DNA of 63,760 bases, filler included, from Reclinomonas americana ATCC 50394 (lineage: Eukaryota), in the NCBI GenBank assembly GCA_048213135.1. It is 20 parts of 20 records of this genome, joined end to end, with 100 filler letters (N's around TTAATTAATTAA, not from the genome) between each part and the next. Parts side by side here need not be neighbours in the genome. Positions count along the whole stretch, not along the records: positions 19,408 to 26,014 come from AFZH01019474.1; positions 26,115 to 27,268 come from AFZH01019475.1; positions 27,369 to 32,030 come from AFZH01019476.1; 17 more parts are not named here. One strand, 5' to 3'. Below, in pieces: positions 7,477-44,218 of the stretch (position 1 is its first letter; every line of letters starts with the position of its first letter). The notes beneath the pieces are model-generated. The model was not told where the DNA came from, made no database searches, and saw only the letters and a list, made by a program, of their open reading frames with translations. Position numbers and translations under genes: made by a program.

Positions 7477-9994
7477 TCAATCGCTGGAGGAGGACATGAC
7501 AGGTGTTGTCTCGTCACTGTCGACGTTCTCCGGTGTGGCCACGAATTGCAGCACTGTGTGTGTGCAAAGGTACAAAGTAAGCGCCTTTTCTTATTTGCCT
7601 GTGACAGCAGAAACCGCAACTGTCCGCGTGCATGGCCAGTAATCTCGCCTCCTCGCGTACAAAGCACCGAAGTACAAGTCGTGGCAGTGGTTCTCCGTTT
7701 TGCTCGTCGTCGTCGTCGTCGGTGTACCCGAGGTTGGCTGGTGGTGCTGCAGCTGTGCGACATCGTGTGTCTGGGGTGGTCGTCGTCAACTGTGCGAGAG
7801 CGTCGACTGCGCGACTGGCCGACAGCCATTCTTGTCGGCTGCACCATGCGGGGTTCCACTCTGTGTTGGAGTGCGTGCGGTGGCGTGAGCAGAAGCAGCC
7901 CATGTCGTTGTCGGCGCCCGCGGAGAAAAAAGAGCACGGATAGAAACACACGCGGACCTTGGCCCCACACGCGGAGTGTGGTATCGAATGATACGCTGAC
8001 GATTCGTCCGTCGCCCAGGAACGCGGCCGCGTAAGCCGGGCCAAAGTGCACGCCGAGAGCCACCATGAGGCGGCCACTGGCCACGTTGAACACGCGAACT
8101 AGGCCGTCTGCGGCAAGTAATGAGGAGAAGGAAAGGAGGAGGTATGAGAGAGAAAGAGGAATGAGGAAGAGGAGGAGAGATAGACGAGCACGAGAAGGAG
8201 AGCTTGAGGAGAGCGAGGATGAGAAAAGAGGAGAACGAGGAAGAGGTGCAAAAGGAAGAGGAAAACGACGAGAAGAACAGGAGGTTGAGAACAGGAGAAG
8301 GCAAAGAAACGCAACAGCGACAGAAGAAGTGAAGCAGCAGAGCGCATAAGAAGAGAAGATGATCAAGGGGGACAGGAAAAATAGAAGAAAAACAAGAAGA
8401 GAAGGAGACGGAGAACGAAGAGGAGAAAAAGGAGAAACAGAATAAGAAACCAAGAGAACGAGAAGAGAGGAGAGGGGAACGAGAACAGGAGGAGGAGAAA
8501 AAACAGGAAAACTATGAATGGCCAAGCGGCGACACAAATGAGAGATAAAGCAGAGAGCAAACAGGTGGTGAGACTAAGAAGAGTCAGAAGAAATGAAAGA
8601 ATAACCCCGAGGAAAAGGCGACGGAGGAGAAAGTCAACGAGCAGATAAGGGAGACGAGGGGAATGGTGAGCCTAAGAAGAGGAGGAGGAGGAAGAAAAGA
8701 ACATGAGAGAGATCAGAAGCAGCAGTGACACAAACGAGAGATGGAGCAGCAAGCAAAACAGAGAGAGAGAGAGAGAGAGAAAGAAAGAGAGAAGTAAAGA
8801 CAGAGAAGGAGCAGTGTGAAAAGAGAGAAGACAAGTCAAGGAGGACGCAGGTCGGAATGAAAGAATAAACCCGCCTGCAAGGGAGGCCACGGAGAAGAGG
8901 ATGAGTCAAAGAGCAGGAAAAGGAGGAAAGCAGATGAGAGAAGAGGCGACGAAGGTAGAATGCAACACGGAGAAAGCGCGAAAAGAAAAGAGACAAGCCT
9001 GACGGAAAAGATTCCATTCCTCGCGCTCCATCTTCATCTGTCCCCTTATTCTTCCCTCTTTCCCCCCTTTCCCCTCCACCCCCTCCTCACCCCACGCCGC
9101 ACTCGTCACCAACGCCCCATCCACGGAAAACGACATCGAACTGACCACCGCCGTCGCCGGATCCTGCACCCTGCGCTGCCTCACAATCTTACACTGACTA
9201 TCGTCGCCGTCCTCGTCGGAGAGCGACCACCACTGCACGGTGCCATCGCGCTGCCCCGTGATCAACGTATCGGTGTGTGGAGCCGGCGCCAGGGCCAGGG
9301 CCGACACTGCGGAAGCGGGCGACGACGACGACGACGAGTCCACGCGCAACACGCGCACGCACTCACCACTCACCAGTGACCACCACCGCAACGTGCAATC
9401 ATCCGACGCGCTAATCACCTGCGCGCGCTGCTCGACCACCACCAGTGCCCGCACAGGTCCCTCGTGTCCCTCCATCACATGCACCGCGTTGCCAGTGGCC
9501 GCATCCCATACACGCACCGTCCGATCGCCCGATCCCGACACCACCATTCCCAACAATGACGATGATGATGCGGCCAGTGCAGACACATACGACGAATGCC
9601 CATACGCGCACCACACACTCTCCTGCGCAGACGACGAGGCCAGATCCCATAGCTGCACACTGAAATCACTGACATCGAGGACTCCACCACTGCCCGACAC
9701 CAATCGCCACTCGTCCACAAAGAGCACGCGCAGCACAGGCGCAGTCAACGAGGCACGAAAGGAGTGTGTCAACTCCACACACGGATGCAGCTCATCAGTG
9801 TCGTCGCTGTCGGTGACCTGGAACACGCGAATGATGCCATCAGAGCTGCATGTGGCGATGCGGTTGTCACACGTGGAGACCCATGTCACCGGCTGTGTGT
9901 GTGTCTCGTCGACGGCGAGCATGGTGCCTTGTGAGCGAAGGATGGTGGTGCTGCCTGAAGGGCCGATGGTGGTGGTGATGATGGAGCGCCACAT
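7477..9994 (-). CDS. WD40-repeat protein with a short helical C-terminal domain
   Basis: Exons 9994-9091, 8107-7958, ~7860-7621, ~7553-7477. Repeats such as GHSSYVSALAAS..VVSGSGDRTVRVWD and GHEGPVRAL..VISASDDCTLRWWS; tail LPRLVLRCFVREEARLL; TGA at 7479-7477. Confidence 0.85.
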
Positions 9995-10058
9995 GGGGAG
10001 GAGGGAAGAGAAGGACGAGAGCGGGACACTCAATCAATCTGTAGTGTCACTGCACGCA

Positions 10059-22676: not shown

Positions 22677-25600
22677 TCATCTAAGGTCGACCTCGCCCAG
22701 GTCGGATTCTAGTTGCTCATCGCGCAGTTCGTCGTCCGTCACCATGGTCCACGAGGTGATGCGCAGACCGGAGCTCGGCACCTCCTCCGAGAGCATGGGA
22801 ATGTCGTCGGCGGTGAGTGACGACGGCGACATGGCCGCAGGCACCCGCACCGGTTTCACCGCATCCTCGTCCTGCTCATGCGGCGTGCCTTCTCTGCCGC
22901 CGCCACGCTCCTCCTCGTCTCCGGCCGCAGCACTGAGCGCAGCATCTTGATCCAATGCCGATGCTGCGGCGGCAGCGGCCGCAGCGGACGATTGGGCGTG
23001 CGACGGAGCCGCAACTGGTGCCGCTGGTGGTGGAGGCGGAGGCGGTGGTGGAGGAGCCAACTCGGCGCGCAGCTCGGCCAGTGGCTCGCAGCGGTCGAGA
23101 ATGCCCCAGGTAAGATCGCGGATTTCCTGCAGTGGAGAGGGGAGAGTCAACCAGCTTGTTTTTCTCTGTCGCAGCTGTACCGCATTCTCTCTCTCACCTC
23201 GCCAATGATGCTGTAGATATTTTGCGCGTCCATCACGCGCAAAATGTTTTTCAGCGTCTCCCGCACACCGTCGACCAGCATCTCGGTGCAGCTGCCGCGC
23301 GTGTACTTTTCCATGAAGCGCAACAGCTGTGTCCACAGCACGTGGAAGTCGCGACTGTGCGCCAGGACAGACAATTGACTGCGAGGGGAAAGGGGGAGAA
23401 GGGAGTTAGGAGAGAGTGAGAATATATGGAAGTCAAGTCGTCGTACACTGCCGCAGAGATCAGACTCGTGCAGAACTCGTCGATACCAAACGGCTCACAT
23501 ATTCCTCCTCATTCTACCTCTGCTCTTTTTTGCCAACTCTCATCCTGTTCGCTTCTGCTCAATTCTCTTTCTTCTGTTTTCTCTTCTCCTCCACCACAAA
23601 GAGGCACGACATATCACACGCGCTGCATCCGCACAAAATGCCTTCCTTACCAACAGTCCTTTCCACCTCTTCCTCTGTTCCGTCGTCTCTCCTCTTCTTC
23701 TGCTCTTGCTCATACACGCACCAGCATTCGCTGTGCACTTCAGATGCTGCTGAATAAAGTCGCGCTCCAACTTTCCTCTCCCTCACACTTTGCGTGTCCA
23801 CCAATTCCTTCTTTGTCCTACCTCCTCCCCCTTCCCCCTTCCCCCTTCCCTCTTTACCCCCTTCCCCCTTTACCTCCCCCTTCCCCCCCTCCTCCCCCCA
23901 TCGGCGCAACTGCAAGAACGTCTTGGAAATGACACTGACAGCACGCAGCCGCTCATCATCGGCCGTCCCAGCCGCCTTGTCAAACAGCGGGCTATCCAAA
24001 AAGTCCTCCATCAGCGGGAACAGAGTCTGCTGGAACACCGACATCCAGTCGGCGGCGCTGGGTGGCACAATCTTCAAGTGCATCGGTTGCAGCGCATTCG
24101 ACAGCGCAATGAGGCCGTGATGTCTGGCGTTGCGGTTGCGAATGGTGCACACGATGCGCAGGCCACGCAGCACGCACATCCACGTGTAGACCGACTTGAC
24201 GCCTGAGGGGAGGAAGAACGGGGTCTCAGTGCAAGGAAAGGAGTGAATGTGGTGCCGTGCTACGCAACGTTCGGCAATGTCGAGCATGAGGGCGAGGCAT
24301 TTGCGCACGGCGTCCGGCACGCCATGCATGCGGCACGCAAACTTGACCAGCGTGTCCAAACAGTCGCTGGCCAGCGTCTCGGCCGTGTTGGTCGGTGCAC
24401 CAGCCGCCACCGCCATCATCGGGTACTTTTCCACGCAGCGCAGCAAGTGGCCGCGCTCCACAATCAGGCCGACCACCTCCAACGCCGCCTGCTGTGCCGC
24501 CGGGTACATGGACAGATTCTTCCAGCACCGCAACACACAGCGCCACTCGCTCGGGTGCGCACTGCCAGGGCGATGAAGTGTGAGCACGGGTTACGCCAGA
24601 TGCACACAGATGCTTGAAGACGAAACTTTTCGCCCAACAAGCAGAGGGTGGAGGCCAGCTCGCGGAACGCCACCGCCAATCGCCCAGCAGCATAGGTGGT
24701 GTCCGGCTGACTCTGATACACCTCCGAGTACACGTTGCCGGGGACGCCTCGCGCGCTAGTCGGAGCCACCTGCTGAGCCGCAAAGTCGCCCGACGATCTG
24801 CCAGGCTCGCCCTCTGCCATATGGACAGGGTGAGAATCGGAAGGAGAGATGGTCGCGGAATGTCGACGCAAACATACCGGCTTTGTCCATCACCGCAAAG
24901 GCACGCGACAAGGAGGCACAGGCCACCAGGGCCAGTGAGGCACGGACACTGTCGCGCAAACTTGGATGCAGTTGCAATGCCGCCGCGGATTCTGCAAGCA
25001 CACACACACGATGAGGAAGGGAAAACCGTTGTTGACAAGGACGAACTGCAATTCACACATACCGCCCGGATTTACGCGCAACGGCGACACGAGTCGCAAG
25101 ACGCGTGTGCACAGTCGCAACAGACTGATGGCCACTCGCTCCACCAGCACAAATGGCACAGAAGTTTCCTCCAATGTGCCGCCCACAATCGTCACACGGT
25201 GTTCGCAGACCTCCTGTGATACGCACACAAATGGTGAGTGCGACACGCGGAGCATAGGAGACATTCGAGTGCACGCTCACCAAATACGACGTGGCCGGGG
25301 TGGTGACCAGTTGCTCGGGGCGCAAGCCAATAGCCCGCACCACCGTCGACGCCAAAAAGTCAAACACCATCTCCCACACGGTGAGGATGCGGTGCTCGTT
25401 CTCCAGCACAATGCGCGTCAGCAGCTCCACGCCAAACACAACCGTGTGCACGGTCGGACGCGCGCCGTCCTTCTCCGGCTGTAGTGACATGAGCATCGAC
25501 TTGACTAGGAACACCAGACTGTCGTCGGAGAGCATGCTGTGAAATGAACGAGGGCGGTAAGTAAAAACTACCCCAATCCATTCCGTGTGGACTTGACAAC

Positions 25601-28600
25601 CCCCACGAAACTGTGTGTTCTCGAGCCAATTCTGCAAGGCACATTCGCGCACAAAGGCCTCGAGACGCGAGTACGAGCGATCGTATGCAATTCGATGTTC
25701 CTCCGTGTCGGCAGCTCGGGCGCTGCTGAAGAACGAGAAAAACGAACCGATGCCGGAAGACGAGTCATCGCGAATCGGCCGAATCACGACTGAGGATGGG
25801 TGAGTGAGTGAGGTGATGCGATAGCGGAGGCAGGAATCGAGAGGTACGCACATGGTCGCATCACCCGGCGACTGTCGTCAGCACTGACATCGCGACACTC
25901 GAGCAACTCCACCGGCAGCACGCCGAGACGGTGGAGGCGGAGAATGATTTCCAGCACCTGCATCGCAATCCAATGTCAGCAGGTAGCAGATGAAGAGATG
26001 AGAGAGTTACATTANNNNNNNNNNNNNNNNNNNNNNNNNNNNNNNNNNNNNNNNNNNNTTAATTAATTAANNNNNNNNNNNNNNNNNNNNNNNNNNNNNN
26101 NNNNNNNNNNNNNNGTCGACATCGTGGGTGTGCTCGAGCACTGCAATGGAGTCAGTGAGTCATCAATAGACACAGGAGCACAGAGACGCAAAAAGAAAAG
26201 AGAGGGGAAAATTAACAAGTGGAAACTGTGTCAACGGAGGATGAGAAAAGTATGACAGAAGAAGAAGAGTGTGCGCATGAGAAAACGAAAGAATAAGTAG
26301 GAGTCAAGCAAGCACATTGCCCCTCCTCTTTCACTCGCCCACTCTCACTCTCTCTCTCTCTCTCTCACACACATTCGCCCACTCACTCATTCAACCTTGC
26401 TCATGTCTCTCTGTTCAATCGACAGTCACTCACTCGCCCACTCTCTCTTTCTCTCATTCCCTCTCTCTCTCCTCTCTCTCTCATTCCCTCTCCATGAGTA
26501 CGTCTGTCTCTCCCTCTCTCTCCCTTCCTCCCTTCCACCACCACTCACCATACGTGAGCGAGCTGACGGCCGGTCGCCAGGCTTGGGAGAACAAATTGCG
26601 AGCAAACGGCAAGTACCCATTCTCAGAAGCCTGCATGAACACACATTGTAAGCACACAACAAAAAACTCCTCCAATCAGCTTCACCAGTACACGCAACAT
26701 GACGCATGGCGGCCTCCACCACCGGGTCGCTGTGCGTAAAATTGCCAGCGTGGCAACACGCCTCCTCCACCAACTCGGCCCAGCGCGAGGCGTTGCGATG
26801 GCAATTCACGATGCGATCCTCGTTGGCAAACGCACGAGCCGACACCGACTCGAAGATGCGGCGCAACAGCGTCTCTGGCAGATCCACACCCTTGTTCACG
26901 CCGCGATTGTTTGACACGAATTCGTCGGCCGTCATGCGTTTCTGTGCACGCACACATACTCCTAAGAACGAGCTTCTTCTCTCTTGTACAAATCACGCGC
27001 AACGCACCCGCACTGACGGATTGTGCTGGTCCGTCTGCAACATCATAATGGAAAAGGCCATCACCACTGTCGTGTCGGTGGACGTGAACACGTGCCCGAA
27101 CGTCTCGTCTTCGGCGAAAACCTCCTTCTCGCCGTGATGGTGAATGAGATGTGGCGGGCGTGCTGTTCCTGCAACGCCGCCGGCACCTCCGCCTCCCTGT
27201 GCAACTCCCCCTGCTGCACCAGCACCACCAGCGCCACCGGCAGCACCACTGCCACCGACGCTGGCCGCNNNNNNNNNNNNNNNNNNNNNNNNNNNNNNNN
27301 NNNNNNNNNNNNTTAATTAATTAANNNNNNNNNNNNNNNNNNNNNNNNNNNNNNNNNNNNNNNNNNNNCCCTTCAAAGTGCAACAACTGCTTCCCACTGC
27401 CCGCATCCCACACGCGAATGGTCTTGTCGAGACTCGTGGTCACCAGGAAGCGATGATCGCGCGAGAAGGTGGCACTCGTCACACGATCCGTGTGGCCCTT
27501 TAGCGTAAAGGCCAGCGCCGCTACTGGCTCCTCGGGTGCCGCCTTGGCCGCCGTCTCGTCGGCACACCGCCAGACACGCACGGCCTCGTCGGAGGAGCCG
27601 GCGCAGCACATGCGACCGTCCGAGGCGATGGAGACGCAGGTTGTCCGGCTGCCAGCGGGGCCACAGTTGAAGGTCTGCAGGCACGTCTGCGACTCCACGT
27701 CCCACAGTTTGGCCGAGGAGTCGAGGGAGCCGGAGATGACGCGGCGGCCGTCCACCGTGATGCACACACTGGAGAAGGGGGAAGATTGAGGGAAGGGTGG
27801 AAGGGGAACGAGGAAAGGGGGAAGATTGAGGGAAAGCGAGAAAGAAAGAATGAAAAGAAAGGGAAAGAGAGAAAGGGAAAGGGAGAAAGGGAAAGGGAAA
27901 GTGAAACGAGGGGAAGGAAAGGGAGGAGAGGAAAAGGAGAGAGAAAGTGGAAAGAGAAACGAGACAGGTGAAGGAAGGCGAGCTGAGATGACTCGAAATG
28001 GTGAGAAACGGACGAGAATTCTCGTCGACCTCGCGGTTCGATGCTCTCGACACGAGACGAGTGGGGACAAGAAAGTGAAAACGGGAATTCTGTTGAAGAA
28101 GCTTAGCGAGGACAAGAAAATTGAGGAAAGAGGCAATCGACGGACTTGTAGTCTACGAAGCGAGAAGCATGCTGCTCGCGAAATGAGACGAGTAGAGGGA
28201 CAGGAATGAGAGAAAACGGGACTCATCGTTGGAGGAGCTCGCTCTTCGTTGCAAATGAGAGACAAAGAGAGGCAAATGGAGGAATGAGAGAGATGGAAAG
28301 GACTTGTCATTGAGGAGACAAGAAGCATTCCGCTTGCAGACTGCTCGCCCCATTGAATGAGAAGGGAGGGCAGAAATTAGCGAAAACGGGACCTCTCGTT
28401 GAAGAAACATGACTATACGCTCCAAATGTGAAGAGAGAATAGGGATATAGTAGCAAGAAACATCCTGCTCACAGATCGCTCTCACCCTTGCATGAGAAGG
28501 GTGGGGACAGCAATAAGTGAGTTGGGTCTTCTCAGCGAAGAAAAGCTCTTCCTTCTTCTCTATCTGCGATCAGAGAGAAATGGATGGCCGACATCTTTTG

Positions 28601-31600
28601 AATCATGCAGCGTATTCTCTTGCCCACTTATCCCTCTGCCTGTCACTCTTCGCCTCCCCCCTCTCACCTCGTAACGCTCGCCGTGTGACCACGCAGAATC
28701 GCCAACGACTCCCCCGTCAGCAGGTCCCACAGCCGCACACTCTTGTCGACACCGCCCGTGACGGCCACCGTACCCGCAGTGGCCAACGACGTAATGTCAT
28801 TGGTGTGGCCGGTGACAATGCGCACACACTCCGTGTCCGCCACACCACCGTCGTCACGCAGCCGCACACACCACAGCCGCACCGAGCTGTCGCTGCTGGC
28901 CGAGGCGAGCCAGTAGTTTTTCGAGTTGGGAGCAGCGGCCACCGAGGCATCCTCCTCTGGTACACCGCGCACAAACACCACCGCTGTGACGCGATCACCG
29001 TGACCCTCCAGCACGGCCGCACACTCGGTGGCTCCCGCCGCCGCCCACACACGAATAGTGCGATCGCGGCTGCCGGACGCCACGCACCGTCCGTCTGGCG
29101 AGTACGCCACCGATGTCACGCAATCGGTGTGGCCCGACAGCGTGCGCAGGCACGTCGGCACCTCCAGCAACTCCACATCGGAGAGACTGCTCGAGGAGGC
29201 GCCGCCACCACCCACCACTCCCGTCAGAGACCACACGCGCAGTGTGTTGTCCACCGATCCCGACACGATGAGCGACGAGTTGGGCGAGAAGGCGGAGCAG
29301 GTGACACCGGCGCCGCCGCCATTCTGCTGCACGTACATGCGAGCGAACGAGGTGACCACGTGATCCACGCGCTGTGCCTCGCCGGGGCAGAAGAAGCTGC
29401 GCCAATGGGGGAAAGTGTCAAGGAGAGAGAGTGCGATAAAGAAAGGGCGACGATTATGAGTGTACCTGGTGATGAACTTGCGCAGCGCCTCGTCGATGCG
29501 CAGGTTGGCAAAGTTGAACGACTTGAGGTACTCCTCCAGCACCGACACGTTAAAGTCGCCAGGTCGCGAAATGTACTCGCCCACCAAGTGCGGATTGAGA
29601 CCGCGCGCTTGCAGGAGGAATTGCGTGACCTCAGAGGGAAGCGGTGGGGTGCTGATAAGCCGGTGCTCCTGCAGGTACGCCACGCCATACTCGGGCTTGC
29701 GCGGTTCGCGGTTGAATTCTTGCACGGCGGCCTTGATCATGGCCTTGCGATGACTGGCAGCAGTCAGGTGATCCGAGGCCTGTAGTGTCCCGGTGCACGA
29801 TAAGCTCAACATCGATGAGAGAGAAATATGATGTGCATTGCACCTCACGATCCACAGCCGTGTCGACCAGCGGGCGGTGCTCGTCAATACTTTCCACCAG
29901 CTTCAACAGTGCATCGAGAGCCGACAAATTGAGGGAGGTCAGCTGCTGATGTGTTGGAACAACGACCTGTATGACACGGGCGCAGGTAAGCGGTCGTGGT
30001 GAAGGAGAATAACAATCAGGCATCGCACCTTGAAGAGATCACGCATGAGCAGTTCGAGCACCGATTCGGAGCGCAGCGCGCAGTCGAACTGGGCGTACAG
30101 GTAGGCGGGAACCAGCGGGTGGGAGAGCAAGTCGCCGACGGCGTCGATGAAGAGTTCGGCGGCTTCGGGTGAGCGGACTCCGATGCCGGAGACTGGGTTG
30201 GAGCTCTGCGAAGGGAAAGGGAGGAAAGGGGAATAAAGGGGAAGGACAAATGTGAGCACAAACGAAGAAGAATGAGGGTGAGAGGACCAGCGAGAGAAGA
30301 GAGAAGAGGTAAAACATGCAGTCGTGCACAAGGTGACTGAAGAGCTAATCGGATCTCCTTTGCCCCACAAACCTTGCCACCCAAATCACTCGAATTGACG
30401 GCATCGCGCGACAACTGCGTGAAGATCGGCAAGTCACCGCCTCCCAGATACGTGTTGACCATGATGGCCTCGACTTGCGGCTGGAGTGACTGGTTGAGCA
30501 CCGGCACGGTGACGATCAAGTGCGCGGTGCGCAGCGCCAGCCACAGCAGGCCCAGTTGCGCCAACTCCTCCACGTCCTTCATCACGCCGAGACAGAGGCG
30601 ATCGGCAATCACCTGCTGAATGGTCTTCGGCAGACGCAGTGTGGTTGGGTCGGGGGCCAGCGCCGCCGACGATGCAATGGCCTCCAGCGCCGTGTTGGCC
30701 AGCGAGAGGCCGAGTGCGCGTGTGACGGTGGAGTTGCCGTCGGCCGAGTCGGGGTCGCACAGCGACGCCACAAACTCCAGTACGTAGGCCGCCGTCTCCG
30801 AGGTGGATGGTACATCCTGCGACCGGGGGCAATATGTGAGAAAACAAGGAGAGACAAAGCGAGAGAGGTCGACACGCACACTCACCACTTCTTCGTCGTC
30901 GCTGCCGTCGCATTGCACGCGGCGGAAGATCGACGAAATCATCTCCAGCAGGAACATATCCGAGGTACGCTTCAGCAGATCCGTGGCGCGACTGTGGCGC
31001 CCGATCTTGTACGACGTGTGCACGACGTCAAAGAGGTAGTCGCTGTCGAGCAAGGCGCCGAGGTCGGAGCGCACGAGGGAGTTGAGCACTTGGAGGATCT
31101 TCATCAGCACGATCTCGTCGGATTCGTAGTCGGCCATCTCGAACTGGCAGTGCGTGACGGCGTCGCCAATGGCGTTGGCGGCTTCGCGGAGGAGGCGGCG
31201 GCGTTGACGGAGGGAGGGGTCGTCGCCTGTGGGGAGGGTGAAGGGGAACGGGGGAAGGATGAGTATGAGGGGAAAAAGTGAGGATGGGTGAGGGGGAGGG
31301 AGAATGCAAGGTCACTGTAGGGCAAGGGGTAAGTGGGCGGAGAGAATGGCGGGAACCGGGGGAGGACGAGAAAGATAGAGAATGTGAGGGTGAGAGTGAG
31401 GTGTAAGGTCGGAACGAGGAGGGGAGAGGGCGAGGGTGAGGGGAGAGGAAGGGGAAAAGGGAAGCAAGGAATGAGAGAAGGAAGGTGGATCGGTCCAAAG
31501 GTGAGATGGATACTGAGAGAGACAAACAATGAAGACGATCAGGAACAGAATCAGCATGAGAAGAGAGCCGTGATTCATGTACGTGCGTTGGCCATGTTCC

Positions 31601-31920
31601 CAAGCTGTGCTATGAAACGCAACATCGTGGCTGTGGCGGTACCAGCAGGAGCGGATGCGACACAAAGCGGTGAATCGCCGACAAGCTCACGCCCGTCACA
31701 GGTCCCGAAGTGATGTTCGAGCGTACCACGGCCAGGAACGGTTGCAGGAGCTCCAGCAGGGGGATTGATCGCCATTCTGTGCAAGCGAGAAGGTGTGAGT
31801 GTGCACAACAGAGGTGAAGCAATGGATGACGGACAAACCGCGCGATGACAGCAGGCGGCTGCGTAGGATGCGAAGTCCCTGTACCAGCTCGTTCTCTGAT
31901 CGCAGAGAGACCTCGCGACG
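22677..31920 (-). CDS. GBF1: GBF1/GNOM-type large ARF guanine nucleotide exchange factor (DCB-HUS-Sec7-HDS) with a WD40 insertion in Sec7; possible ATG at 32143 beyond the gap
   Basis: DCB LLQPFLAVVRSNITSGPVTGVSLSAIHRF and DAVTHCQFE..SDEIVLMKILQVL; HUS LYAQFDC; Sec7 EFNREP..VGEYIS..IDEALRKFITSFFCPGEAQRVD and AFSIMMLQTDQHNPSVRKRMTADEFVSNNRGVN; HDS LFSQAWRPAVSSL, ELLTRIVLENEHRI, LVERVAISLLRL, ETLKNILRVM. Confidence 0.93.
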
Positions 31921-32607
31921 CTGTATTGGGTGTGGGAAGTGAGGAGTAGATGAATTGAGGGGGGGAGAAAAGAAGGACGATTGGTGAGGAAAGAAATTTA
32001 AGGAAAGAAGAAGAAAGAAGCAGAGACAGGNNNNNNNNNNNNNNNNNNNNNNNNNNNNNNNNNNNNNNNNNNNNTTAATTAATTAANNNNNNNNNNNNNN
32101 NNNNNNNNNNNNNNNNNNNNNNNNNNNNNNTCTCGCGCTGCATGGAGGAGGAGAGAAGGAGGAGGCTGTCGTCAGTCTCTCTCGCTCGCTTGCGTGCTTG
32201 CTCGTCTGTCGCGCGCTGTTAGTCTGCGCGCGTGCTCTTGAATGACCGTTGCGGGACAAATGCGGGACACGACGTTGCACGGTTCGAGCTCGGTTGCTGA
32301 CGAAGACCTCCTCGTTGTCTACAAACGTTAGGAGCCCTGGGCGCGAGGGTAAAGTGTCGAAAGGAACGGCAAAACGCGGTGCGCAGCGCCTTGCAAGAGT
32401 CATCCAGAGAATACTGCTGTCTTTTTGACACTCACATGCACGGGACTTACTGGTGCATCCACTCCTCCAAGGCTGGACCGGCTGGAGCGGAAGCAGCGTC
32501 GCCTCGAAGAGCTTTAACGGAGCATGACTTCTCTCGTGACACGATGCGAAACTGAAGTGGGACAATGAGCCACACCCAGTGTGTGTGTTTGCGTGAGTGA
32601 GTGTGTA

Positions 32608-42374: not shown

Positions 42375-44218
42375 TCACTGTGCTCGTCGAGTACCGCTAT
42401 AGTCAATCACATGCAAGAGAGAGCTGCCGCCGCCGGCCACCAGTACGTCACTGGACGCCGCCACACTGTAAATCGGCAAGCGCGAATCGTCCTGCAGGAG
42501 CAGCACGGGCTCGGAGCCGCGCACGCCAGGGTCGACGCGATAGACGCCGCCGGTCATGGTGCCGGCCAGGATCTTGACTTCATCAATCTGTGCGTAAGTT
42601 GTAGGAGGTGGTCAGTGATCGCCCTTTCACAGTGGACTCTTCCGCACGCACCGTCACTGTGGCCAGGTCCGGCACCTCGGTCCACTGGATGGTGCTGTCG
42701 GCGCGGCGCAAATCAAACACGCGCAGTATGTTGTCGGCACAGGCTGTCACTGCCACATTGCCAATGACATCGCACGAAAACACGGTGCCGCGGTAGGCGC
42801 CGGCGCCAAACACACGCACATTGCAGTTGGCACGCAGATCGCTGAGGGTGACCAGTCGCGACCTCGACGCAGTCACCACGCAGTGCGGCAGCGCGTAGCG
42901 CACCGTGTACAAAAAGTCGTCGGGGATCACCGGCAGCTCTTGCGTCAGCGTCTCCGTGTCGAGATCCCACAGCATCACCGAGCGGCCGACCGCCGCCACG
43001 GCTGACACGCCATCGGAGCGCACCGATGAGGCGGGGCGGCCTGTGGGAGGAGGAGGAGGAGGGTGTTGAATGAAAAGGAAAGGGGAGTGAGAGATGATGA
43101 GCGCGTGGGTACCTTCGGCGGCGCACGCAAAAGAAGCCAGCTGACCGCCGACACTCCACATGCGCACAGTGCGGTCGGCGCCGGCCGTCAGCAGCATGCT
43201 TCCGTCGGGCGAGAATGTGGCGTCGTTGAGGCCGCCCTGCAGGTGGTGGGGAGGGGGTGAGGAGGAGGTGAAAGAAAAAACTGGGGAAACTGGATGACAC
43301 TCTCACCCTGTGTCCACCAAACAGCAACACCTGCTCCGGCGCCTCGGCAGTGAACAAATCAAAGACGCGAATGCGGCGATCGTTGCCGCACACGGCCACT
43401 CGGTCGGCGACAGGCGACAGCGCCACAGTGGAGATGTGTGCGGCCATCTCCTGCCGCTGCCGAATGAGACTGTCGGTGGCGAGCACGCGGCCGCCACCTG
43501 GCACCATGCGCGTGTCGGCAATGTGCGCGGCGCGGCAGAGGACCGACCATGTGCGGGCCTCGGCGAAGAGGTGTTGAGTGGGGATGGTGCTGTGTGGGGG
43601 GAAGGAGAGGAGGGCGAAGGGGGGGAGGGAGGGTAATGGTCCATGAGAATACGCTGTATACAAAGAGAGACGGGGTTGTGCGAGAGAGAGAGAGAGAGAG
43701 AGAGAAGACCACGAGAACACACTGCATTTGATCGCCAGCACAGAGAGAAATGAAGAAAAGTTTCATGACCTGCTTATTTGTACGCCTCGTGAGAGAGAGA
43801 GAGAGAGAGGCTCGTAAGATCAACAGCAGAGAGTACAAATCCCACGAGCAAAGCACAGGGCGAAAGAAGAGCATTCGTACTGCTATCTTCATACCCCAAC
43901 AATCCTCGTGTGCGTGAGAGACAGAGAGCACACTGGCCTCGCTCACCAGCACAGAAACAGAGAAAGAAGACCTTTCGTGACCTGCAATCTTCATACGCCA
44001 CTATCCTCGCAAGCATGATCAACAGCAAATCGCCAAGCATGATCAACAGCAAAGCGCAACACAGTCTACCGTTCCCCCCACAATCGTGGAGACAGAAAGA
44101 GAGATCAACTGCTCAGTGCACCTTGGCTGTGAGAGCCTCTGCTCGCCAGAATAGAGAGAAAGAACGGAGAGCACAGCTCTGCCGACAAACCCCAACACAC
44201 ATCGTGTGTCAGAATGAG

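Follow-up and report, generated by a model that had tools for sequence, protein, structure and literature searches.

The locus analyzed here raises the question of whether a GBF1-type guanine nucleotide exchange factor (GEF) for ARF can carry a WD40 beta-propeller inside its catalytic Sec7 domain, as was proposed in an initial annotation of DNA from Reclinomonas americana ATCC 50394 (assembly GCA_048213135.1). The window, i.e., the whole stretch of 63,760 bases that was analyzed, is made up of 20 contigs of 1.1-9.7 kb and 19 artificial 100-nt spacers. Each spacer has the design N44-TTAATTAATTAA-N44, which puts a stop in all six frames; 19 copies are present in the window, where none is expected by chance, and any feature that bridges a spacer was treated as unverified. 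The ARF-GEF finding occupies two of the contigs, 27369-32030 (4.7 kb) and 26115-27268. Judging from the sequence, we consider the WD40 propeller to be probably a real in-frame insertion in the Sec7 domain. The passage from Sec7 into WD40 was reproduced in a second organism and the two Sec7 halves are complementary, whereas the return from WD40 to Sec7 falls in a spacer and is a junction that we infer.

Sec7 motif 1 and WD40 repeats on one open reading frame

The open reading frame (ORF) at 28664..29902 on the minus strand, 412 aa long, matches both Pfam Sec7 (E 1e-27) and WD40 (E 1.9e-37). Motif 1 of Sec7 runs without a stop and in the same frame into WD40 repeats from 29320, so that the exon shared by the two domains, as initially annotated, is confirmed. 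The coordinates given in that annotation were all correct, including those of the catalytic glutamic finger, which is intact: FFCPGEAQ, within FFCPGEAQRVDHVVTSFARMYVQQN and with the Glu codon at 29380-29378, aligns with SFRLPGEAQ of cytohesin-3.

The WD40 part consists of two exons, A and B, of 653 and 400 nt (653+400 nt = 351 codons in frame), with the WD40 frame restored in mid-repeat across an intron of 899 nt; the in-frame reading of exon B begins at 27767. Seven repeat ends of the form [RK][ILVF]W were counted over the two exons, which bears out the estimate of at least seven repeats in 29320-28668 and 27768-27369, and the WD40 scores are 126.5 bits for exon A and 77.4 bits for exon B, versus the 27-bit Pfam cut-off (PF00400). 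Seven repeats would suffice for one predicted beta-propeller. Together with the visible exit linker, the insert comprises at least 351+58 = 409 residues, in agreement with the proposed size of over 400 aa.

In GC content of third codon positions (GC3), the WD40 exons (0.78-0.83) are similar to the Sec7 and DCB exons (0.74-0.84); the linker exon has 0.60 and the long intron 0.48. With this GC3 and its phase-consistent intron, the WD40 part behaves like coding DNA of the eukaryotic genome to which Sec7 belongs. Because the WD40 part holds a spliceosomal intron, it is not bacterial contamination. An independent WD40 gene nested at this place was rejected as well: exon A contains no Met and thus no start codon of its own, and the sole Met of the insert is residue 271.

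The propeller as such is generic and points to no particular partner; in the PDB, it is matched best by 2ymu (with an E of 1.8e-100 as the sum over its many repeats), PkwA, Notchless, LIS1 and WDR5. Identity to database proteins is 30-41%, with maxima of 38% for the 412-aa ORF and 41% for exon A as the query, and no specific orthologue of the insert was recognisable in the protein searches, which were dominated by generic multi-WD40 proteins. A comparison with the protein atlas returned only WD40 clusters, with a score of 0.86, under the lead level of 0.9, and Sec7 was absent from the Pfam families of the 10 clusters listed. Two other ORFs with WD40 repeats are found in the window. The first, at 8909-10033 (minus strand), was considered as the source of the insert and rejected, being just 32% identical; the second lies at 42586-43302 (minus strand).

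The Sec7-WD40 junction in a second organism

A different explanation of the shared ORF is an assembly chimera, in which contig 27369-32030 falsely joins a GBF1-type gene to an unrelated WD40 gene near 29320, and motif 1 really meets the Gly/Ala linker. This explanation was at first favoured with moderate confidence, because a single junction is visible, the join lies inside the low-complexity, GGC-rich GGCGGCGGCGCCGGTG run, the assembly is highly fragmented (64 kb in 20 contigs, each 1.1-9.7 kb long), and the next contig opens in Gly/Ala codons. It also fits with it that low-complexity inserts are known elsewhere at this same loop of Sec7 (in the proteins P0325 and P0355, described below).

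Evidence for a choice between the two explanations is provided by a relative, P0219, i.e., a 162-aa ORF on an independent 899-bp ENA metagenome contig, which was returned by an exhaustive search with the Sec7 N-terminal half. The first 75 residues of P0219 show 56% identity (44/78 aligned) to this half of the window protein, a divergence that assigns P0219 to a different organism. The tail of P0219, beyond an intron, is read out of frame and aligns with the matching alternative frame of the window (29/91, E 0.005), with a gap of 23 residues at the 69-nt intron that precedes motif 1. We re-framed P0219 from the protein alone, taking for each position the residues that are allowed when its codons are read one base earlier. 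The re-framed P0219 is compatible with the spliced protein of the window at 47 of 50 consecutive ungapped positions, whereas the other offsets give a mean of 14.9 and a maximum of 23. Split at the junction, the fit is 30/32 before and 17/18 after. Among the 121,618 18-mers of the window in six frames, the true site is the sole one that scores at least 16/18, the next best score being 15 (two cases), and the Gly/Ala linker, which the chimera model predicts at this place, fits P0219 at 10/18 at most. Thus, the same in-frame passage from motif 1 to WD40 repeat 1, with the same spacing, appears in two independent assemblies from two organisms, which is strong evidence against a chimeric join near 29320. 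The WD40 frame is also continuous with that of Sec7, and exon A lacks a Met. Taken together, we now regard a chimera as very improbable.

Alignments with cytohesin-3 and P0219 support the 69-nt intron at 29465-29397, which is in frame and without stops. Residues 45-145 of the ORF correspond to cytohesin-3 7-102 and residues 169-191 to 103-125, leaving 23 residues between them without a counterpart. The intron is considered real because of this gap, because exactly these 23 codons are absent in P0219, and because its ends are GT...AG. In P0219 and another relative, P0221, introns are found elsewhere within the same Sec7 region; their different positions indicate that intron positions turn over in this lineage. 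Intron sizes in the window gene are bimodal, with 69 and 66 nt on the one side and, on the other, 899 nt of CT-rich sequence with GAAAGG-type repeats (tandem repeats at 27844-27959).

Conservation of the frame bears on a further possibility, namely, that the WD40 exons are genomic but skipped or spliced out (e.g., from the GT near 29309 to an AG of the linker), with a canonical Sec7 as the main form and the WD40 form minor or non-productive. A donor-like GTGTCA is present just past the junction, several CAG sites are present in the linker, and in a canonical Sec7 domain the loop that connects helix G with helix H, where the WD40 segment stands, has about 5 residues. However, the candidate acceptors have no pyrimidine tracts, and the 351 canonical WD40 codons are open, in frame with Sec7, of coding-type GC3, and interrupted by an intron of consistent phase. 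Moreover, from motif 1 to repeat 1 the frame has been conserved, free of indels, in a relative with just 56% identity upstream, and this conserved continuity in P0219 argues for translation of the long form. Removal of the WD40 segment from the mature message is, in our estimate, unlikely.

The two Sec7 halves, the gene and the site of the probable insertion

The full Sec7 profile (PF01369) is covered by the two contigs, with positions 1-90 and motif 1 on the first and positions 117-146 and 145-181 on the next, as expected for a Sec7 domain that is split and flanks WD40, which is how it was initially annotated. The halves, which map to cytohesin-3 7-125 and 131-159, are exactly complementary (Pfam positions 1-116 and 117-181): the insert and two short introns interrupt the coverage, and profile positions are neither duplicated by overlap nor lost. 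It should be noted that the "gap" at 27269-27368, reported initially as preceding the linker and the resumption of Sec7, is an artificial contig spacer; the linker does start at 27268 and Sec7 at 27094. Motif 2 reads ...VMAFSIMMLQTDQHNP (27008-27094, minus strand), then ...KRMT (26930-26941, minus strand). At what we take to be the determinants of brefeldin A response, the Ser, Asp and Met residues resemble those of sensitive proteins and the Phe that of resistant ones.

Probable further parts of the same gene lie on both sides of Sec7 (Table 1). The only PDB family matched by the upstream ORF at 30019-31311 (minus strand) is Gea2, the yeast orthologue of GBF1. Between this DCB-like exon and Sec7, the ORF at 29939-30385 (minus strand) contains ...LYAQFDCALRS..., which by eye resembles a diverged HUS box (N-Y-D-C-D). 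The downstream ORF with the weak GBF1-like TPR match has no PDB match. Five of the 10 top full-length matches were named: two are GBF1/garz (animal), and three are unnamed or SEC7-domain products. The GBF1/garz matches and the Gea2 match of the upstream exon fit the initial classification as a GBF1-type ARF-GEF; this assignment to the GBF1/Gea type is probable rather than proven, because upstream of Sec7 neither DCB nor HUS was recognized by its Pfam model at E up to 1.

The order of these parts is relevant to a third alternative, a scaffold mis-join, according to which the fusion of the Sec7 N-terminal half with WD40 is real, the linker and the Sec7 C-terminal half come from another copy or allele, and the fusion is not a GEF. 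The return junction is hidden in a spacer, and the order of contigs in the window is of unstated basis, both of which would allow such an error. On the other hand, the halves break off at the same loop and complement each other there, sharing no Sec7 profile position and leaving none out; DCB, Sec7-N, Sec7-C and GBF1-like TPR follow in order on one strand over three consecutive contigs; and the intact glutamic finger is kept in two species, arguing for a working domain. A mis-join is, accordingly, quite improbable. Quite probably, the locus represents one minus-strand GBF1/Gea-type gene that extends over at least three scaffolded contigs, with its Sec7 domain interrupted by a lineage-specific insertion in the loop between helix G and helix H (G-H loop). 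Successive parts of the gene are carried in order by consecutive contigs.

Several points weigh against the insertion. First, support of the junction from relatives consists of one 162-aa protein, which was compared through degenerate residue sets (4-8 residues per position). Second, a short GGC-rich run, such as that in which the junction lies, is a type of site prone to false assembly joins. Third, the Sec7-to-WD40 junction is the only visible one, as the return is in the spacer 27269-27368. Fourth, the first strand of the propeller is strand A of blade 1, so that an N-terminal closing strand is lacking, and upstream of Sec7 the Pfam models of DCB and HUS are silent. Finally, no full-length relative of the same architecture was found by word-based and exhaustive protein searches or by metagenome scans. 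In the exhaustive search with the Sec7 N-terminal half, the best match had 95 bits and 34% identity, and no protein reached E 1e-30. As a query, the exon of the linker and motif 2 had no protein match at E up to 10, probably because relatives were crowded out by Gly/Ala words. The metagenome scan with lineage patterns gave 383 pattern matches, 0 of which were confirmed, and the scan with a degenerate PGEAQRVDH pattern gave 16 loci, none of which showed further similarity to Sec7 outside the pattern (lowest tblastn E 0.037).

The insertion, which we continue to consider the probable explanation, can be placed on the Sec7 fold. In cytohesin-3 (2r09_A), motif 1 ends at position 125 and motif 2 starts at position 131; the insert thus stands in place of a loop of some 5 residues between helix G and helix H. 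We surveyed the spacing of the motifs in 168 Sec7 proteins (150 matches to the search with the Sec7 N-terminal half, plus cluster members), 80 of which carry PGE and the motif-2 pattern. The distance from PGE to motif 2 is 40-47 residues in 78 of the 80. The survey served as a test of the initial statement that the two motifs are typically only a few residues apart, which this spacing corrects. The remaining two (2/80), P0325 and P0355, have spacings of 96 and 113 residues, with low-complexity inserts in the same G-H loop, suggesting that this loop tolerates inserts; it seems to be an insertion hotspot. The inserts of P0325 (residues ~640-740) and P0355 (~350-470) are 55-70 residues long and rich in Gly/Ala/Pro/Glu; one of the two proteins is an ORF from a Logan assembly and the other an NCBI protein named ARF-GEF GNOM. 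NGGGA within the P0325 insert recalls QQN-GGGAG of the window protein.

In Sec7 structures, helix G and helix H are paired as an antiparallel hairpin, with the glutamic finger at the start of helix G and the G-H loop at the opposite end, about one helix length away. Combining these structures with the mapping on cytohesin-3 and ARNO, we place the insert on the rim of the ARF-binding groove and not in the catalytic centre. The initial description of the insert as lying next to the active site was thus overstated, because the insert and the glutamic finger would be at opposite ends of helix G. Since both halves keep their catalytic and groove motifs and the set of profile positions is complete, the protein has most likely retained its activity as an ARF-GEF, as far as sequence can indicate.

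Table 1. Coordinates of the parts of the ARF-GEF gene, listed in the direction of transcription, and of the contig spacers
Feature	Position	Strand	Basis
DCB-type N-terminal region	30913..31176	-	residues 46-133 of ORF 30019-31311 align with yeast Gea2 (7uro_A) 143-230, E 4.6e-10
Sec7 N-terminal part (helices to ...ALRKFIT)	29466..29767	-	Pfam Sec7 positions 1-90; aligns with cytohesin-3 2r09_A 7-102
In-frame 69-nt GT-AG intron	29397..29465	-	23-residue gap versus P0219; PDB target contiguous from 102 to 103; GT..AG ends
Sec7 motif 1, glutamic finger, helix G	29321..29396	-	aligns with cytohesin-3 103-125
WD40 exon A: repeats 1-4 and start of repeat 5, preceded by the GGGAG entry linker	28668..29320	-	Pfam WD40 E 1.9e-37, 4 stretches; GC3 0.78
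899-nt GT-AG intron, CT-rich low-complexity, splits repeat 5	27769..28667	-	donor AG/GTGAGA, acceptor ...CTCCAG/ (slash, splice site); GC3-equivalent 0.48
WD40 exon B: remainder of repeat 5, then repeats 6-7 and a further strand (...LLHFEG) to contig end	27369..27768	-	Pfam WD40 E 7e-22, 3 stretches; GC3 0.83
Spacer hiding the WD40-to-Sec7 return	27269..27368		N44-TTAATTAATTAA-N44 read directly
Exit linker, Gly/Ala-rich then His-rich, 58 residues visible	27095..27268	-	open from the first base of the contig
Sec7 motif 2 (HVFTSTDT...LQTDQHNPSVR), helix H	27008..27094	-	Pfam Sec7 117-146; ARNO 1r8m_E 128-158, E 6.5e-5
66-nt GT-AG intron	26942..27007	-	donor CGG/GTGCGT, acceptor ...GCACAG/; flanking exons match consecutive Sec7 profile positions
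Sec7 C-terminal part	26834..26941	-	Pfam Sec7 positions 145-181, E 9.3e-8
Weak GBF1-like TPR (HDS-region) match, two contigs downstream	23910..24185	-	PF23325 E 6.5e-5, 23.1 bits, under the 27-bit cut-off
Starts of the spacers	2321, 4535, 10237, 11590, 14738, 17140, 19308, 26015, 27269, 32031		
Starts of the spacers, continued	37430, 40832, 50633, 53272, 54913, 56444, 59104, 60842, 62581		

Among the other features of the window, two ORFs at 20996-22392 (plus strand) match the C-terminal part of the catalytic domain of class I methionyl-tRNA synthetase (PF09334 positions 295-357 and 347-390). They are probably one gene that is split by an intron or a frame change, and they run convergently to the GBF1-type gene, facing its 3' end. 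No RNA gene was matched by Rfam anywhere in the window.

Proposed role of the propeller and comparison with known systems

Representing the insertion in the order of translation, we define the following parts: (i) an entry linker of 5 Gly-rich residues; (ii) seven canonical WD40 repeats, with 351 residues visible; (iii) a stretch that would lie in the contig break; and (iv) an exit linker of at least 58 residues, which contains an 18-nt tandem repeat at 27217-27257. The contig break is probably caused by Gly/Ala triplet-repeat DNA that could not be assembled. Because the entry linker (GGGAG) is short and the exit linker (at least 58 residues) is long and flexible, the propeller is expected to be tethered close to the end of helix G, and it would hang from that end of the G/H hairpin which is remote from the glutamic finger.

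WD40 propellers are protein-binding platforms. We prefer a model in which the propeller would provide, within the GEF itself and beside the bound ARF, a docking site for a coat, a cargo adaptor, a membrane receptor or a regulator. A second possibility is that the propeller may sterically steer the open/closed swing of the GEF domain; such a swing is described for Gea2 in PMC9469209. Under either model, the Golgi ARF-GEF of a protist lineage would carry a propeller in cis beside ARF and would couple or gate ARF activation. We put this forward as a tentative proposal, the correctness of which is rather doubtful at present. If true, coupling or gating by a propeller in cis would be a regulatory principle new for ARF-GEFs.

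The architecture itself would be of interest in several respects. The Sec7 domain is commonly viewed as a compact uninterrupted module, and regulation of the large ARF-GEFs is ascribed to the flanking DCB, HUS and HDS regions. A folded interaction domain of 40 kDa, nested in the loop that links the two helices of the groove, would be evidence that the catalytic core can accommodate a large insertion, and would be a natural experiment on bringing partners to the site of ARF activation. Given that the same junction is found in a second organism, this architecture would also mark a poorly sampled eukaryotic lineage with a clear molecular synapomorphy. It should be noted that domain-based annotation pipelines would yield two Sec7 fragments and a WD40 protein from such a gene.

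A full-text literature search found no description of a WD40 domain inserted in the Sec7 domain of an Arf GEF, and no solved or listed Sec7 protein with a nested WD40 architecture was found. In a search by term, WD40, an insert and a propeller were absent from the main text of a pan-eukaryotic survey of ARF-GEFs (PMC6727740), and WD40 was absent from a paper on domain architecture (PMC553965). The initial statement that no GBF/BIG protein is known to have this architecture agrees with this limited literature and with the protein comparisons, in which all five full-length matches scanned had an uninterrupted Sec7 (5/5).

Compared to GBF1, Gea1-Gea2 and GNOM, the window protein is alike in having a Sec7 domain with glutamic finger and motif 2, a match to Gea2 143-230, GBF1/garz as the best named matches, and a weak, sub-threshold TPR match downstream. 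Unlike these known members, in which Sec7 is uninterrupted (in the five matches scanned, and with the canonical spacing in 78/80 proteins of the survey), it has at least 409 residues, including seven WD40 repeats, in the G-H loop, and its DCB and HUS regions are without a Pfam score. An insert of about 146 residues between two conserved Sec7 subdomains, with no folded domain, is said to have been described for the Plasmodium falciparum ARF-GEF by Baumgartner et al. in 2001. An unusual arrangement of secondary structure in the Sec7 domain of a P. falciparum ARF-GEF is mentioned in PMC7061341. P0325 and P0355, which together with the P. falciparum protein come closest to a precedent, share the site of insertion with the window protein; however, their inserts are 55-70 low-complexity residues with no folded domain, whereas that of the window protein is a seven-repeat WD40 with linkers. 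A folded domain at the G-H loop of Sec7 appears to be new. Regular GH...WD repeats are common to the window insert and to WDR5, LIS1, Notchless/Rsa4, and the cyanobacterial and fungal multi-WD propellers; in contrast to the canonical seven-bladed propellers, the WD40 repeats of the window protein are neither free-standing nor terminal, being nested in the loop of another domain.

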